Positions 7,538 through 22,428 of a stretch of 64,000 bases of DNA are shown in pieces. The stretch is from a virus (lineage: Duplodnaviria > Caudoviricetes), in IMG/VR virus record IMGVR_UViG_3300027819_000006; one strand, 5' to 3'. The translations under genes and the position numbers were made by a program. The notes below the pieces were generated by a model that had not been told where the DNA came from, did not search any database, and saw only the letters and a program-made list of their open reading frames with translations. Positions within the stretch are counted from its first letter, which is position 1. Each line of letters begins with the position of its first letter.

Positions 7538-7882
7538 TGGTGGACCTGGAGAATATCGAAATTCTCGTGTAGTCTATGCTACATAAAAATTGTATTGTAC
7601 ATGCTTTTGCAAATTCTAATTTTTCATTCTGTTATAAAGAATTAGCAAAGTTTATAACAGAATTATTCTTTCTATTTATTAAAAGAAGTGTTCTTATCAG
7701 ATATGAATGATGCTATTCTATTTCCTATCTGCAAAATTTAGATAGCATAGCTGTTTAGCTCTTAAGCAGCTAGTTTGTATTGATTTTTGTCAATTACTAT
7801 TTTGCTGTAAGTTTAAAGAGTTTATAGCAAACTCTGCATGCAATTCTTACTTTACATACCTATCGATTCCAATTTCAGGCCC
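7538..7882 (-). ncRNA. ssrA: tmRNA (complete), tag (A)DKNQYKLAA
   Basis: 5' GGGCCTG pairs with 3' CAGGTCC-ACCA with a G3.U pair; AATCGATAGG D-loop region; GCATGC and AAGCATGTA; T-arm GAGAAT-TTCGAT-ATTCTC; tag ORF GAC...GCT GCT TAA at 7762-7791. Confidence 0.92.
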
Positions 7883-13677: not shown

Positions 13678-14454
13678 CTATGGATTGAATCTACTACCCC
13701 AATTATTATGGATTTCTTTATGACACTTCCTGCAAAGTATTAATCCATTCAATAAGTTTTCATCTTTTATTCTATCACAATTAGCTAAATAAGCAGCTTT
13801 ATCATCGTCACAATCGAAAACAATATTACATTTTGCTAATTCCTCTTTTATTAATATGACCATAGGAACTATATGATGAGCATCTAATTGTTCTTTGCTT
13901 CCGCATTTTGAACATTTATCATATGCAGCATACATTTTATTGTACCATTTAAATCTTCTACTGACTTCTATTTTAACTTTAACTGTTAGAGTGTGAAATC
14001 TACCACCTTTCCATGCAGTAGCATTTTTGCCGGTCTTGCCTGTTCTCGATATAGACATTTTATTCCTAGTAGCTATAGAATGTTTTTTATGATACATACT
14101 ATTTTTAGGACCAGATGTATCTCTAATTTTTATAGCATTTTGATATTTTTCTGAATTTCTTACAGCATTTCCATGTTCTTTCTTTTTTTCATCAGTCCAA
14201 AATGCTTTAGTTCTTTGAGGAGGATGATTTATGGGAACTATTTTTCTATAACATGGCTGGCATATATCTATATGAGATTGTCTATTTATTTTATTTCCAC
14301 ATTCACACATCATATTATTTCTACAGGGTCCACATATTTCGTATCCACATCTTATAGAATCTTCTTTTAATTCATTATTACAGCTGCGTATTTCACATTT
14401 CATTTTTATCTCCTTGAATATAATAAATATACTCAAGAGAGACAAATGAATCAA
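13678..14454 (-). CDS. HNH homing-endonuclease-like protein with NUMOD3-like motif
   Basis: KKHSIATRNKMS, CSKCG...HHI...LCRKCHKEIH. True start is probably MKCEIR. Confidence 0.8.
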   Translation of the reverse strand: MIHLSLLSIFIIFKEIKMKCEIRSCNNELKEDSIRCGYEICGPCRNNMMCECGNKINRQSHIDICQPCYRKIVPINHPPQRTKAFWTDEKKKEHGNAVRNSEKYQNAIKIRDTSGPKNSMYHKKHSIATRNKMSISRTGKTGKNATAWKGGRFHTLTVKVKIEVSRRFKWYNKMYAAYDKCSKCGSKEQLDAHHIVPMVILIKEELAKCNIVFDCDDDKAAYLANCDRIKDENLLNGLILCRKCHKEIHNNWGSRFNP

Positions 14455-15703: not shown

Positions 15704-18700
15704 CTAAACAATCTTGAAACCATCTACAGAATATCTAGAAATTCTATTAACCTCTTCTTCTTCATGTTTCTCCATCTGATTCAAATAGAAAGCAAATCTC
15801 TCTTCTATATGCTCGTTCAAATCGTAAACTTTATCAGAATAAACTTTCAAATCTGCTGCTTTCTTCTTTGATTCTTCAAAATTCTCGACATGTTTAGATA
15901 TAGCATCTGTCCACACTTTAGGAGCTGTAACACTTACTGCCATGTTTTCAAATCTTAGTTTATCGGGAACAGTTTTCCAGAAGTCATGATAACCTCCATA
16001 ATTGCTGAATACTGGGACTGCTCCATAATACAAAGATTCTATCAGCTTTATCTCTGATTTGCACTCGCTAAATGTATTATGTTCTACATATGCCAAAGAT
16101 ATATCAAACAGAGTATAGAATTTAGCATATTCTTCTAGAGGCAGAGCATCAAAAATTTTTATTCTCTTTGGATCAATACCTGAATATAGTTTCTCTACTC
16201 TGTTTCTATAAGTCAAGCTCTTGTCTTGCAATTCCATTTCTCTGAATTTAGCCTGACCATTCTCGTCATATTGTATTTCTACTTGTGAATCTTTCAATGC
16301 CATACCAGCAAGCACAAATACAGTCTGTGGATATCTGTCATGTATGACTTTTAGAATGGAATACATTTTTCTCAGATCTTCAAAATGACTTGTAAGACCT
16401 GCCCAGCCAATAACAATTTTATTGTCAGTTGAAGGAAACCATTCTGGTAACATTTGCTGTCTAGTATCAGAAATATTTAAATTCCATTGTGGCAGTTGCC
16501 AGTCAAACATATTTCTGATTATATGCACATTCTTATTGAAATTTCCAAATGTTTTACATAGTTTCTCAGTAGTAGTTGTAATAGCATGACTCTTGCTTAG
16601 AGAGTGAATGCTCATTTGATCTTTTTTGCTTGCATCAATTATGTTGCGATGATATCGATTCCATATCATCTCTTATGGTCACCCATAAGTTCAGACTATT
16701 TCTTGTGCTATATTCAAAAGCACCTCTCTGTTTCAGCTTCTCTTGAAGCTTACATTATATAGTCGTTGCACTATCTGTGTTTCAAATATTCAGCTATTAT
16801 GCTGATTACTGCAATAAGAGATATTACAGATAAAGCATATATTAAAATATACTTTCCAAATAGCTCAGAGTTTTCTCAGTGAGATTTTCTCTGAATTAAG
16901 AGAGTTTTTATTATGTGAAGCAATTTAATACCACACATCACGCATCAATTATGTTATCTTAGAAGTTCTTTATCTTCTAATTCTGATAATTTTATTCTTA
17001 TCAGTTCGGACTATATCATCAGTATTGAAATACTGTCTCTTTTTCTTGGATATTTCTATCTAGTCTCTGAACCTTCTATTTTATCAATAGTTTAGCTGCT
17101 GATTAGCATTTCAGCTTTCCAGCAATTTAAGAGATTTTTCATTGAATTATTCAATGCCCCAATTTTTATTCAGGGTGCGTTCTTGGTAAGTTGAATTCAT
17201 TATCTATTTATTTGTTAACTGCAATTTCTTTTATTATAGTTGCAGATCGGACTATTTCATCTAGTTCTATGTCTAGTCTCTGAACCTTCTATTTATATAG
17301 CTTGGCTGCAGATTGTCTCTGTCTGAGATATCCCTGCAATTTATAGAATTTATTGTGGACAATATTTGAATTCTAAAAACTTAATCCACATCATGACAGA
17401 CCCAAGCAGATTTCTCTGTCTTCGGCCACATGTTTACTGCTGATAAAAAATGTGAATGTAAATTTCCACATCTGTGCATTATTATTCCATCTGCTAATTT
17501 GAGATGATTCGGTTGTCATTTATGTTGCGGAATTTATTCGCAATAAGCTGCTGAAAATAATATGCATGGTTTCTTAACTTTTATATTGATTTCTTCGAAG
17601 CTATAATCTCTAAAAGTATGAAAATTAAATTCATCTTCATTTCCAAAAGATCTTTTTAGTGTTGCTTTAGCCTCTTCTAAATCTTTTGCTGCTATAAAAA
17701 TTATACTAAGTGAATAACCTTTACATGCTTTTACTTTAAAATATTTCATAATAAATTCCTCTACAATTTTTTATATTGTTGTAGTTCGGACTATCACATG
17801 ATCTTATAATATACTAAGCTGCTACCATTCAATTTTACCAGATTTACGAACTAATTTGTTGCCATATAGAGTAACTACTAATACATCTTCTAATACTTTA
17901 TATGTTCTTTGTGCAGCGTTTGATTTAAATAATTTCTTAACAGAAGCTGCTTGTTTCTTAGTCATATATCTGTAATTCACCATAAGACCTCCAAGGTTTA
18001 GTCTCTTCTACTGCATTTTCATGCTTGTAGTTTGTTAGCTTTAATTATGTTTCTAATTTGTTTTTTGTCTAATTTATCAGAAGATATTACGCATCCAAAA
18101 TCGCTAGTATTTTTAGTGTCAGGATGTTGATAAATGTGTAATCCAAATTTGTATTTTAAAACATGTTCTAATATCTCTATGTAGCTCATTGGACCTCCTG
18201 CAATTATTTCTTGATTCATAGTCAAAGCCTTTCAATTTAATTACTTAAGATTCTCATTTCTATATTGCTATAGAATGATCCACATTGTCTAGATTTTCAG
18301 TATAAACTAAATTTATCTCATCTCTAAAATTCTTCCACAGTACTCTCATCGGTTCAAAGATTCTGAAATATGCTTTCATGTTAGCTACAATTTTTGATAT
18401 AGTTGTAGTTCGGACTATCATATGATCTTTATGCTTTACCAAGTCTCAGGATCATTTCTATAAAAGTGTACAAATGCTAAAAATATTATAATACATCCTA
18501 GTGGTAAAATTAAACATTTTAGATCTCCAATCGTTTAGTCTCTCAAGCTGCAAAATTGTTTATAAAGCTTCCTGTCTTGATTAAAATATACTTTTTCTAT
18601 TGAAAGCTCTACTAAATTATAAATATATGCACACTTTCTATTATCTTTGGGACATCCTGGATCTTCTGCTTCTAAATATATAAGAGGAGAATATTTATCT

Positions 18701-19309
18701 CTATATATTTTAGCAATTTTATAATCCCAACTTTTGAGCTGTCTTACCTGAACTTCAACCCAAAAAGGCATGTACCTATAGTTCATCATGTTTTGCTTGC
18801 TCCTTGTTGTCTGATTTCTATGATCAGATATTCAAGTGATTAGATTAGATTCTCATTCTATATTATTAGAATGACACCATTTAAAATGTTCCAGTTTCTG
18901 CTTTATGTTAATCTCTAATTTTTTGTATAGTTAGAGTTCGGACTATCATATGATCTTTACAGATTATTAAAATCAAAACCTTCTCCTTTATAATTCTCTG
19001 TACAATATGTCGCAACGAATATTAAAAGAAAAATTATTATTCCGCCCATAAAAATCTCCAATCGTTTAGTCTCTCAAGCTGTATTTAAACTTGTTCCTTG
19101 TTGTCTGAATTTTATTCAGATATTCAAGTGATTAGATTAGATTTTCATTCTATTGCTTATAGAATGCCGCCAGAATTTAACGGAGTGCTAAAAACGATAC
19201 AGCGCTTAGATCGATCGATGCTAGATGGATTAGTGAACATTTGTTTCAACTTGTTTCTTTCTTCAGCATTTTTATAGTTCAAATGCTCTTCTACATTTTC
19301 TTCTGTAAT
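15704..19309 (-). CDS. GT-B glycosyltransferase, 7 exons interrupted by six group I introns (446 aa spliced)
   Basis: Exons 19309-19180, 18900-18886, 18372-18291, 17516-17384, 17204-17172, 16945-16930, 16635-15704 total 1341 nt in frame: ...STPSETGTSYFRIFEP...HDVDDNEFNLPRTHPMRDVWYASKKDQ...IGWAG...KSEIKLIE. Probable ATT start behind AAGGAG. Confidence 0.88.
16636..16929 (-). mobile_element. Group I intron 6 (294 nt)
   Basis: P1 GUGUGGU/GCUUCAC; AAUCAGCA; GCAACGACUA; AAGAAAUAGUCUG; ends AACAUAAUUG; splicing restores the TAT codon. Confidence 0.88.
16946..17171 (-). mobile_element. Group I intron 5 (226 nt)
   Basis: P1 CCCU/GGGG; AAAUUGCUGGAAA; AAUCAGCAG; UUCAGAGACUA; GAUGAUAUAGUCC; ends AACAUAAUUG. 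Confidence 0.92.
17205..17383 (-). mobile_element. Group I intron 4 (about 179-180 nt, very compact)
   Basis: P1 GUGGAU/GUCCAC; AAAUUGCAGGGA; AAUCUGCAGCCAAG; UUCAGAGACUA; GAUGAAAUAGUCC. Confidence 0.9.
17534..17749 (-). CDS. 71-aa ORF looped out in a 3' helix of intron 3
   Basis: Flanked by complementary GAGGAATTTATT / AATAAATTCCGC. Confidence 0.55.
   Translation of the reverse strand: MKYFKVKACKGYSLSIIFIAAKDLEEAKATLKRSFGNEDEFNFHTFRDYSFEEINIKVKKPCILFSAAYCE
17822..17983 (-). CDS. 53-aa basic ORF inside intron 3 (not in ORF track)
   Basis: GGAGG then ATG; MVNYRYMTKKQAASVKKLFKS...KIEW. Confidence 0.5.
   Translation of the reverse strand: MVNYRYMTKKQAASVKKLFKSNAAQRTYKVLEDVLVVTLYGNKLVRKSGKIEW
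18019..18225 (-). CDS. Small ORF inside intron 3
   Basis: ORF track; AGGAGG before internal ATG (MSYIEILEH). Confidence 0.5.
   Translation of the reverse strand: MTMNQEIIAGGPMSYIEILEHVLKYKFGLHIYQHPDTKNTSDFGCVISSDKLDKKQIRNIIKANKLQA
18373..18885 (-). mobile_element. Group I intron 2 (513 nt), core nearly identical to intron 1
   Basis: P1 ACAU/GUGU, P10 AUG/CAU, same P3 and P7 strands as intron 1, ends AACAUGAAAG. Confidence 0.92.
18535..18789 (-). CDS. 84-aa ORF inside intron 2 (no homing endonuclease motif seen)
   Basis: ORF track; AAGGAG upstream within the intron core. Confidence 0.55.
   Translation of the reverse strand: MMNYRYMPFWVEVQVRQLKSWDYKIAKIYRDKYSPLIYLEAEDPGCPKDNRKCAYIYNLVELSIEKVYFNQDRKLYKQFCSLRD
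18901..19179 (-). mobile_element. Group I intron 1 (279 nt)
   Basis: P1 CCGU/GCGG with U.G at the 5' site; P10 UUCUG/CAGAA; P3 UCUAAUC/GAUUGGA; P7 GAGACUA/UAGUC; ends AACAUAAAG. Confidence 0.92.
18957..19049 (-). CDS. 30-aa hydrophobic mini-ORF inside intron 1
   Basis: GGAG-6 nt-ATG; MGGIIIFLLIFVATYCTENYKGEGFDFNNL. Confidence 0.45.
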   Translation of the reverse strand: MGGIIIFLLIFVATYCTENYKGEGFDFNNL

Positions 19310-21305: not shown

Positions 21306-21556
21306 TTATCTGATTTTTCTAATGGGAAGAATTTGCCTTCGTCTAAGTGGTTTTTTCTAGTACATTCTTCACAAGCTCCAAACTGACTAAAAAATTGTGC
21401 TGACCATCCCGTCAGTAGATTACCACATTTTTTACCATGTTCATCGACTCTGTCGCAAAAAACTGGAGAAATAGGTTTGTGATTTTCTTTTATAGTGCTC
21501 ATGTTGCTGTGCCATTTTTTTGTTTTATTTATTGGCAATCCTTGAAAGTTTTCCAT
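21302..21556 (-). CDS. Small Cys-rich (Zn-binding) protein
   Basis: FCD..., KCGNL, GACEEC. Confidence 0.55.
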   Translation of the reverse strand: MENFQGLPINKTKKWHSNMSTIKENHKPISPVFCDRVDEHGKKCGNLLTGWSAQFFSQFGACEECTRKNHLDEGKFFPLEKSDK

Positions 21557-22428
21557 TTGCTATCCTTTTTTAAATCTTCATAGAACAATATATAATATAT
21601 GTTTTCTAAATTATATTTTTCTAGAAAGTTTTTTATTTTAATTTTATTACACTCTGTTAAATATCCTTTGACTTCTTCTATTCTTATCAAATTATCATTC
21701 TCATCATAAATAAAGAAATCAGGAGTATATGTAGTTCCTTCTAATCTATATGTTATTTCTTCATACTTCCAGTTTGCAGATATAGAATCTAAAAATTGAG
21801 CCCTCTCTAATTCATAAGAAGATTTCAAATAATAATCTCTATATTCACTTTTTATATATCGATTTTTTATATTTGGGCTAACTTTTCTGCTCTGAACTAT
21901 CTTAACATTTCTATCGAACCACATCTCTTCAGCTTTTTCAACACCATATTCAGCTATCCACATATCTTTTACTGATACACCAAACATCCCATTCATAGAG
22001 CCAGTTAAACTCCAAGTTCCATTTTTCTTTTTACTTTCTTCTGATTTTGTAGTAATTTTTATCATAGTTTCTTTAGAATGGCGATGTCCAGTCATAGGAG
22101 GTATCTGTTGCAAACGTTTATCACGTCTTTCTTTTGAATCATAGACATGTTTTTTACAATATCCGTATTTATTCGGATTAATCCTTTTATTACAGCCTTC
22201 ATGTTTGCATATTACTTTTCTGTCATCAAAATATTTTCGCTTTCCATAGTTTGGACCATGGTGTCCTATACAAATGTAACATCTCAAAACTTTATTACTA
22301 ACGATATTATTCAGACATTGATTGCAATATTTATCTATATTGCTACAATATAAGCAGAAACTATATTCTTCAAATTGCATAGAGCGTTTATTACATTTGC
22401 TACATTCTCTGATAATTTCTTGTATCAT
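21529..22428 (-). CDS. Free-standing endonuclease-like protein (Zn ribbons, NUMOD3-like, PD-(D/E)xK)
   Basis: CxxC repeats, GHRHSKET, KSSYE...YTPDFFI...EEVKG. Confidence 0.75.
   Translation of the reverse strand: MIQEIIRECSKCNKRSMQFEEYSFCLYCSNIDKYCNQCLNNIVSNKVLRCYICIGHHGPNYGKRKYFDDRKVICKHEGCNKRINPNKYGYCKKHVYDSKERRDKRLQQIPPMTGHRHSKETMIKITTKSEESKKKNGTWSLTGSMNGMFGVSVKDMWIAEYGVEKAEEMWFDRNVKIVQSRKVSPNIKNRYIKSEYRDYYLKSSYELERAQFLDSISANWKYEEITYRLEGTTYTPDFFIYDENDNLIRIEEVKGYLTECNKIKIKNFLEKYNLENIYYILFYEDLKKDSKWKTFKDCQ

Follow-up and report, generated by a model that had tools for sequence, protein, structure and literature searches.

Six small open reading frames (ORFs), A to F, fill hairpin loops of three group I introns in a glycosyltransferase-like gene of a Caudoviricetes virus. 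The gene lies on the minus strand at positions 15704-19309 of a 64,000-nucleotide stretch from IMG/VR record IMGVR_UViG_3300027819_000006, referred to here as the window, and is interrupted by six group I introns in all. We think it reasonably likely that these mini-ORFs are genuine small genes with no recognisable nuclease domain, situated in loops of self-splicing introns, that their Shine-Dalgarno (SD) sequences and start codons are paired in the folded ribozyme core so that folding gates their translation, and that this cargo has spread with the introns. By our count four of the six frames have good support as genes, a fifth plausibly encodes a peptide and the sixth is a frameshifted copy; at least two, B and E, are under purifying selection. 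All features under study are on the minus strand, and the G+C content of this part of the window is about 30%.

The host introns and their fold

Exon and intron boundaries were derived from the sequence. Exon 1 ends at 19180, exon 2 is a 15-nt segment at 18900-18886 and exon 3 spans 18372-18291. Intron 1 (18901-19179, 279 nt) contains helices P2 to P9, with a P1 formed by the exon sequence CCGU and the guide GCGG, and has the 3' end AACAUAAAG. Intron 2 (18373-18885, 513 nt) has a core that is 79-82% identical to that of intron 1, and intron 3 (17517-18290, 774 nt) contains three ORFs. Introns 4, 5 and 6 (17407-17228, 17181-16997 and 16965-16672) are free of ORFs and are the only ones scored by the Rfam model RF00028; introns 1 to 3 are missed because their loops are filled with ORFs. 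When an E-value threshold is applied over the whole window, the larger search space drops even introns 4 to 6.

The junctions are supported by other alleles of the gene. In four IMG/VR alleles (L009-L012) the host gene is uninterrupted and reads ...FSTPSETGTSYFR...YTENIQPNH...HDADDNEFNLP... The junction of intron 1 is backed by these four and by allele L002, all of which lack the intron and read ..STPSETGT.. Removal of the introns at the predicted junctions restores the host frame (..STP/SETGT/SYFR..TENL/QPNH.., with slashes at the junctions), which corresponds to the L009-L012 protein. Likewise L002, which is devoid of intron 1, and a third intron-containing allele, L006, which is devoid of introns 2, 3 and 6, read uninterrupted through the predicted junctions.

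A single canonical P1-P9 map fits all five members of the lineage, namely window introns 1 to 3 and L002 introns 2 and 3. The group I hallmarks are present: a P3-P7 pseudoknot, a U.G pair in every P1 and a terminal G in all introns. P1 covaries between the window and L002 in intron 2 (ACAU/GUGU versus ACGU/GCGU) and in intron 3 (AUCU/GGAU versus ACCU/GGGU), as does P6 of intron 3 (CUAC/GUAG versus CUGC/GCAG). P3 is UCUAAUC/GAUUGGA in the intron 1/2 type, UCU(U)AAG/CUUGGA in window intron 3 and UUUAAG/CUUAGA in L002 intron 3. Applied to ORF-deleted cores, RNAalifold returned P1, P2 and P9 only, because P3 and P7 form a pseudoknot; the helices were therefore mapped by hand and their pairing checked. 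On these sequence features introns 1 to 3 are group I introns, and their splicing is predicted.

The host reading frame meets stop codons at 19160-19158, 18883-18881 and 18261-18259, that is 8, 2 and 10 codons into introns 1, 2 and 3. Since these stops lie at or before P2, ribosomes translating the exon are released ahead of the core, a trait shared with the T4 introns. The first 17 nt or so of the intron that L006 carries at site 1 (L006:1827-2056), comprising the guide region TAAWTTCTGGCGG, are the same as in window intron 1; the remaining core is unlike it (Rfam, 75.7 bits) and holds no ORF. Window intron 1 has a core resembling that of its neighbour, intron 2, which looks like recombinational core replacement.

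Shine-Dalgarno sequences within helix strands

Introns 1 to 3 carry one to three ORFs each, filling the hairpin loops L5, L6, L8 and L9.1. In five of the ORFs (A, B, C, D and F) a GGAG, AAGGAG, GGAGG or GAGG stands 4-10 nt ahead of the ATG, within P3' (the 3' strand of P3), P4', P8 or P9/P9.1. The sequence-only reading had placed the P3' strand just ahead of an ATG in each of introns 1, 2 and 3. This is indeed the arrangement found, with GGAG or GGAGG followed by the ATG after 6, 7 and 4 nt, respectively: the 3' end of P3' supplies GGA and the opening of P8 supplies the next one or two G residues, while the spacer is the 5' strand of P8, which takes in the first one or two bases (A or AT) of the ATG itself.

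ORF A (18957-19049; 30 amino acids) begins with a hydrophobic segment, ends in an acidic tail and takes up the whole P8 loop of intron 1. Its ATG at 19049 follows the SD GGAG (19059-19056) with a spacer of 6 nt. The SD is contained in a stretch (19056-19063) made of the P3' strand and the first G of P8, in which GAUUGGA (19063-19057) pairs with UCUAAUC (19136-19130). Both the A of the ATG and the stop codon TAA fall within the P8 strands (19056-19049 / 18959-18952). In the P8 loop of intron 2, ORF C (18436-18517) has the same layout: its SD GGAG (18528-18525), 7 nt before the ATG at 18517, lies within P3' (18532-18526) and P8 (18525-18521). This ATG opens a frame of 19 amino acids, and it is the +1 frame (18516-18436) that encodes a transmembrane-like segment. 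ORF D (17822-17983; 53 amino acids, beginning MVNYRYM, net charge +9) fills the P8 loop of intron 3. Here the SD GGAGG (17992-17988), separated by 4 nt from the ATG at 17983, spans P3' (17995-17990) and the 5' strand of P8 (17989-17982), which takes in the AT of the ATG.

ORF B (18535-18789; 84 amino acids, beginning MMNYRYMP) occupies the P6 loop of intron 2. It is preceded by AAGGAG (18805-18800), with a 10-nt spacer formed by the 5' strand of P6 before the ATG at 18789. As had been claimed, this SD belongs to the Q-like segment of the core (18800-18806): the strand CAAG (18806-18803) contributes its AAG as P4', and the adjoining junction bases complete the motif. Intron 1, which has no ORF in P6, reads AAGGAA where intron 2 has AAGGAG. 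The 3' end of ORF B traverses P6' (18548-18544), the junction J6/7 and the 5' strand of P7 (18540-18536), with its stop codon at 18537-18535.

ORF F (17534-17749; 71 amino acids) is enclosed by P9.1, a perfect 10-bp stem (17759-17750 / 17538-17529), so that the earlier placing of its GAGG inside a stem is upheld. That GAGG (17761-17758) runs from the end of P9 into P9.1, 8 nt ahead of the ATG at 17749, and the stop codon TAA lies within the 3' strand of P9.1.

ORF E (18019-18219; 66 amino acids) departs from this pattern. It fills the P5 loop of intron 3 (P5, 18229-18224 / 18042-18037) and not the P6 loop, has a weak SD, GAAAGG, overlapping the 5' strand of P5, and at its 3' end traverses P5', P4' and the 5' strand of P6. 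An AGGAGG ahead of the internal ATG at 18189 had been taken for a Q-like core strand; this assignment fails, as the motif (18199-18194) makes up codons 7-9 of ORF E. The L002 homologue of ORF E has no SD-like sequence at that position, the residues EIIA upstream of it are conserved, and the N-terminal extensions of the two alleles differ in frame by 21 nt. The start of ORF E is most likely 18219.

The 1,663 nt of introns 1 to 3 contain 36 ATGs, six of which have GGAG or GAGG 3-12 nt upstream. These six are the five ORF starts (A, B, C, D, F) and the internal ATG 18189 of ORF E, and no others. For comparison, the same motif precedes 5.1% of all ATGs in the window and 34% of ORFs of at least 80 amino acids. 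All but two of the SD-like motifs in this segment precede an ATG. A scan of IMG/VR with a 14-mer from P7' recovered about nine more distant group I introns, which served as an outgroup. They have a short, ORF-less P8 and a variable P3' strand, in most cases without GGAG; a GGAG in P3' is therefore no general structural need of such introns.

Evidence that the ORFs are genes

Homologues of B, E and F in the other alleles argue that these three are genuine genes. ORF E has a homologue in the same loop of L002 that is 76% identical, with a ratio of non-synonymous to synonymous substitution rates (dN/dS) of 0.10; the ORF B homologue, also in the same loop, is 55% identical with a dN/dS of 0.36. 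At the DNA level the window and L002 are 80% identical over ORF E and 63% over ORF B, with identity lowest at third codon positions and both frames open, that of B for 71-84 codons. The ribozyme cores are 87-93% identical in most segments and 81% in two. ORF F has a homologue in L006 (39-42% identity; phmmer E 6.7e-5 against 1.84 billion proteins, local blastp E 9e-14), a pair too diverged for a meaningful dN/dS. In mononucleotide shuffles the chance of an open frame is 3e-4 for B, 9e-4 for F, 3e-3 for E, 4.5e-3 for D and 0.05 for A.

The sequence-only reading had pointed to two ORFs beginning M(M/V)NYRYM. These are B and D, and the M-x-N-Y-R-Y start recurs in the L002 homologue of B and in a 68-amino-acid ORF of L006. 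The N-Y-R-Y codons of the four members differ only synonymously (AAC/AAT, TAT/TAC, AGG/AGA), which argues for constraint on the peptide. ORF D is very probably a gene as well, and the short P8 peptides are plausibly so. The C-termini of ORF B differ between alleles: the window frame ends with a UAA inside P7 (GACUAA; 18535-18548) and that of L002 with a UGA in P6' (GCUUGA; L002:611-625). The L002 protein is 13 codons shorter, hence the C-terminal tail that overlaps the core is not conserved as protein.

The peptides encoded in the P8 loops of window intron 1 and L002 introns 2 and 3 do not align at the DNA level (51-62% identity with many gaps). Each has a transmembrane-like N-terminal segment beyond what composition predicts, with p values of 0.03, 0.01 and 0.09, respectively. 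The segments are confined to the reading frame, and their maximal Kyte-Doolittle hydropathy over 15 residues (2.3-3.0) exceeds that of stop-free shuffles and of the other frames. In the P8 loop of window intron 2, the transmembrane-like segment (p 0.002) is in the +1 frame, and the 19 residues of the ATG frame have no hydrophobic segment. This agrees with the previous description of the intron 1 and 2 peptides as hydrophobic and similar, the second lying one base off its ATG frame. The loop is 100% identical in the independent assembly L001, and ORF C is probably a recent frameshift copy of an ORF A-like peptide.

Homology and structure searches

The suggestion that the introns carry non-nuclease cargo is borne out in so far as these are real ORFs without a recognisable nuclease, with homologues in two alleles and, for E and B, purifying selection. 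Searches of ORFs A-F against Pfam, PHROGs and NCBIfam gave no significant match and no homing endonuclease domain, the classes considered being LAGLIDADG, GIY-YIG, HNH, His-Cys, PD-(D/E)xK and EDxHD. Pfam matches to DUF7716, DUF7635, DUF1647 and DUF2827 fell below the cut-off and were disregarded. ORF B has no histidine. As a positive control, the 360-amino-acid ORF of L002 intron 4 matches NUMOD3, which indicates that endonuclease genes are both detectable and visitors of this intron array.

In the collections searched, the families are confined to this locus family. Among 5.8 billion proteins the B/D (MxNYRY) family has four members, all within these introns, and ORF E has one homologue cluster; the same scan found the ORFs also on a second contig of 271,887 bases. 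ORF F has one true homologue among 1.84 billion representatives, a further candidate (P0005) being a spurious low-complexity repeat protein. No paralogue of the mini-ORFs was found elsewhere in the 64-kb window, no relative of B or F in scans of IMG/VR, and no match to the mini-ORFs in the flanks of the intron-free alleles L009-L013. A scan of JGI metagenomes with a P7'-P9 pattern yielded seven chance matches and no member of the lineage, and an ESM Atlas feature search with ORF F gave scores of at most 0.86, which are uninformative.

Structure prediction, with models of moderate confidence, gives few leads. The AlphaFold model of ORF B (predicted local distance difference test, pLDDT, 75) shows a helix, four strands and a helix, with no telling match in the Atlas shape search. 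That of ORF E (AlphaFold2, pLDDT 73.5) is a small alpha/beta fold of generic ferredoxin/PII/KH-like shape, whose best match, a PII-like cyclic-di-AMP-receptor cluster (TM score 0.76), is taken as a lead from which no function is drawn. Foldseek searches of the Protein Data Bank (PDB) with B and E returned nothing at E <=0.001.

Mini-ORFs in other alleles and introns

The mini-ORF families are not bound to one loop. Family F is found in P9.1 of window intron 3 and in the P8 loop of L006 intron 4, where an 11-bp stem closes it. MxNYRY ORFs are present in P6 of intron 2 (window and L002), in P8 of window intron 3 and in P6 of L006 intron 4, the last with a 10-bp closing stem. L002 intron 3 has no ORF F and carries a different ORF in P8. 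In L002 intron 5 a 63-amino-acid basic, Cys-containing ORF with its own AAGGAG is located exactly in the loop of the P2 hairpin (L002:2766-2957; CATTGAAT/ATTCAATG); the window counterpart, at about 17140-17125, is empty, with a one-base loop. By sequence this is a clean presence/absence polymorphism of a cassette. The rule that an ORF fills its loop holds in the mapped cases, with the stop codon in or just before the 3' strand and, for B and E, beyond it. That the SD is a helix strand is true of the P3'/P8, P4'/P6 and P9/P9.1 cases. When conservation of ribosome-binding site (RBS) and ATG was checked, four of five P8 loops proved to have kept ATG position, SD and open frame.

These observations led to a more tentative proposal, which we regard as possible rather than likely. 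The loops may be a dedicated niche for exchangeable, stem-bounded mini-gene cassettes that move between loops and introns and are gated by ribozyme folding. The introns would then be carriers of accessory genes, and MxNYRY might represent a new intron-associated class, such as a mobility/targeting or folding factor.

Two further ORFs were noted in these arrays. L002 intron 4 (L002:1569-2651) contains the NUMOD3 ORF, a likely homing endonuclease, at a site where the window has in its intron 4 just the ribozyme, about 180 nt long; this ORF may drive co-conversion of the introns with ORFs next to it. A putative 102-amino-acid ORF in L006 intron 5 (L006:3124-3432) extends from the P6 loop through P7, P3', P8 and P7' into P9, an unusually long overlap of ORF and core, if real.

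A proposed folding gate on translation

In the comparative model, the folded ribozyme would base-pair the SD and ATG of A, B, C, D and F. Together with the reading of B and E into P4', P6 and P7, this would make translation and the catalytic fold structurally incompatible. The sequence-only reading had gone further, proposing that the two exclude each other under a splice-versus-translate switch. The predicted incompatibility stands, at both ends of the ORFs; the regulated switch is unproven. What the sequences show is the set of ORFs, how they are conserved and where they lie with respect to the covariation-supported helices; translation, occlusion in vivo, the kinetics and the mode of spread are inferred, and may follow the scheme below.

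Each cassette would be closed by a stem (P5, P6, P8 or its own P9.1) that preserves the geometry of the ribozyme. Compaction would have moved the RBS into the 5' strand of the closing stem or into the preceding core strand (P3' or P4'), and the stop codon into the 3' strand or beyond. During transcription P3 could form once P3' has been made, while closure of P8, P6 or P9.1 would be possible only after the whole ORF has been transcribed. The short interval before the 3' strand emerges would let one ribosome load. A loaded ribosome would hold P3/P8 open or, in the case of ORFs B and E, P4/P6/P7, and would on these two ORFs also unwind P6'/P7 or P5'/P4'/P6. The later fold would shut the RBS, initiation would be blocked and splicing would proceed. 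Such a gate would be kinetic rather than a regulated switch. Its expected output is a low, early and roughly one-per-transcript expression of the cargo, with splicing protected afterwards. The cargo probably spreads as a passenger of the introns, in co-conversion events set off by homing endonucleases close by, of which the NUMOD3 ORF of L002 intron 4 is an example.

The T4-late-type motif TATAAATA does not occur on the minus strand of 17517-19179, sigma-70-like sites in introns 1 to 3 are not in excess (18 versus 16.8 in shuffles), and no copy of the putative early-promoter repeat was found inside the introns, although the T4-late-type and sigma-70-like motifs may not be the types used by this phage. 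With no recognisable internal promoter, the ORFs are probably read from the pre-mRNA or the excised intron.

Several points weigh against the proposal of gated small genes, and the reservation on promoter types just made is one of them. The secondary structures are comparative models, and the sequence set amounts to three distinct alleles (window, L002 and L006), each recovered from groundwater metagenomes. In the L006 homologue of ORF F, in the L006 ORF beginning MVNYRYL and in the P2 ORF of L002 intron 5, the SD is in the loop, immediately past the 5' strand, and that of the P8 ORF of L002 intron 3 is degraded (TTAGAG for TTGGAG). Finally, the frameshift in the P8 ORF of window intron 2 means that at least that cargo is dispensable.

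Alternative explanations

For the short P8 ORFs it could be that translation itself matters and not the peptide. A ribosome crossing the loop would keep P8 open until it terminates in the 3' strand, and would thus act as a folding timer or chaperone, or would protect the long run of untranslated introns against Rho or RNases. Between the window and L002 no alignment of the P8 ORFs is possible, yet these ORFs keep ATG position, SD and open frame in four of five loops, and their stop codons are always in the 3' strand of P8. Efficient splicing of T4 introns is also described as dependent on ribosomes (Semrad and Schroeder 1998; Sandegren and Sjoberg 2007; as cited in PMC3984707). We nevertheless consider this reading unlikely, given that the transmembrane-like segment is retained beyond composition (p 0.002-0.09) and in the reading frame only, that window intron 3 has a quite different, basic 53-amino-acid protein at the same place, and that B, E and F are left unexplained, B and E showing selection on amino acids. 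A function of the peptide in splicing is a different matter. The basic small proteins (MxNYRY, perhaps E) might be maturase-like or RNA chaperones whose binding stabilises the very fold that buries their own RBS, giving negative feedback. Their confinement to these introns among 5.8 billion proteins, the net charge of the MxNYRY members (+3 to +9), the position of the RBS in core helices and the small alpha/beta model of ORF E, with weak KH/S6/PII-like matches, are all compatible with this, and SD autoregulation has a group II precedent (Singh et al. 2002, as cited in PMC3073962). A dedicated maturase would, on the other hand, not be expected to occur as the same family in different introns and loops, nor would introns of one lineage be expected to have different ORF sets. 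Moreover, window introns 4 to 6 are without any ORF, there is no significant fold or sequence match to RNA-binding domains, and E has no conserved GXXG; we therefore hold a maturase-like role to be quite unlikely.

The last possibility is that the ORFs are decaying remnants of homing endonucleases or chance frames in AT-rich loops, with SD-like motifs that are merely structural. ORF C is frameshifted, ORF A taken alone could be open by chance (p 0.05), homologues outside this locus family are lacking, and a real NUMOD3 endonuclease-like ORF sits in L002 intron 4. Decay or chance is nonetheless very improbable, since dN/dS is well below 1 for E and B, the p values from shuffling are 3e-4 to 4.5e-3 (B, D, E and F), and none of the ORFs resembles any endonuclease family. 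In addition, all but two of the SD-like motifs in the 1.66 kb precede an ATG, and the introns recovered with the P7' 14-mer have a short P8 and for the most part lack GGAG in P3'. Our preference thus stays with small genes gated by ribozyme folding.

Comparison with known systems

The conflict between splicing and translation is, as a principle, already known from the td intron of phage T4 and its endonuclease I-TevI. In that case the ORF is looped out of P6, a hairpin sequesters the RBS, and P6a and P7 are formed in part by the final 20 nt of the coding sequence (PMC3073962). Expression of such ORFs is tightly controlled where they overlap the core (PMC3984707), and premature translation of I-TevI is described as harmful to td splicing (PMC3073962, PMC3984707; Gibb and Edgell 2010, as cited there). 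Like td, and also the T4 nrdB and nrdD/sunY introns, the introns of the window are phage group I introns that hold their ORFs in terminal loops. Other features in common with td are an ORF 3' end that runs into core helices (B ends in P7; E passes through P5', P4' and the 5' strand of P6) and the expectation that translation disturbs splicing. A base-paired RBS may be a further one: SD and AUG fall in P3', P4', P8 and P9.1 of a comparative model, and in three homologous ORFs the SD lies in the loop. Unlike td, the cargo here comprises one to three small ORFs per intron (19-84 amino acids) with no nuclease motif, the RBS would be paired with strands of the catalytic core (P3', P4', P8) and not in a dedicated in-loop hairpin, and no late promoter was found ahead of the ORFs.

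Type I toxin mRNAs (hok, tisB, fst and similar) encode small hydrophobic peptides and keep the SD locked in RNA structure. The P8 peptides are similar in length and build (24-30 amino acids, one transmembrane-like segment and a polar tail) and have SD and AUG in a predicted RNA structure. Here, however, the sequestering structure would be the ribozyme core, and the likeness is one of size, build and predicted structure.

Group I introns carrying genes other than homing endonucleases have precedents. The fungal mitochondrial mL2449 intron carries rps3. In IStrons, tnpA/tnpB genes of the IS200/605 type are placed behind a group I ribozyme (PMC3984707; bioRxiv 10.1101/2023.11.20.567912). These elements carry one large known gene at the 3' end of the intron or in one loop, whereas the phage introns described here have several orphan mini-genes in P2, P5, P6, P8 and P9.1 loops. 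In the papers covered, no directly comparable case of small ORFs without nuclease features inside group I introns of phages was found, which is not proof of absence.

Genomic context

Intron content varies strongly between relatives. The window has introns at six sites of the gene, L002 at sites 2, 3, 4 and 5 (the contig ends there), L006 at sites 1, 4 and 5, and L009-L012 at none. A search of INPHARED for close phage relatives gave as its sole match 70 nt to Staphylococcus phage introns, and contigs from four DNA runs contained identical low-depth fragments only, with no variant alleles or joints.

A terminator-like hairpin of 14 pairs followed by a T run (19389-19358) lies directly upstream of the AAGGAG/start region of the host gene. 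The region is flanked by two Cys-rich ORFs, at 13678-14454 (258 amino acids) and 21529-22428 (299 amino acids), the first of which has an HNH-like ...DAHHIVP... stretch. By sequence both resemble homing endonuclease genes of the free-standing kind, and they could act in trans to mobilise the introns. The window also encodes, downstream of the host gene, a phage transfer-messenger RNA (7538-7882; Rfam, 56.7 bits), whose relative position is conserved in all five IMG/VR relatives (L009-L013).

Significance

Group I introns of bacteria and phages are usually viewed either as a ribozyme with a homing endonuclease or as a ribozyme alone. What is new here is the presence of multiple small, non-nuclease orphan genes per intron, for which the catalytic core itself would be the operator. 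The cassette behaviour of these genes, hopping from loop to loop, is in our opinion the most interesting result, above the splice-versus-translate idea. With the SD in P3', the AUG in P8 and the stop codon in P8', the introns are compact natural constructs for studying the competition between co-transcriptional ribosome loading and RNA folding. They also add orphan small proteins and membrane peptides to the phage genes that are often missed by gene callers and intron annotators. If the mini-ORFs are expressed, group I introns would be vehicles for accessory genes as well, and the ribozyme core would double as the translational operator of its own cargo.

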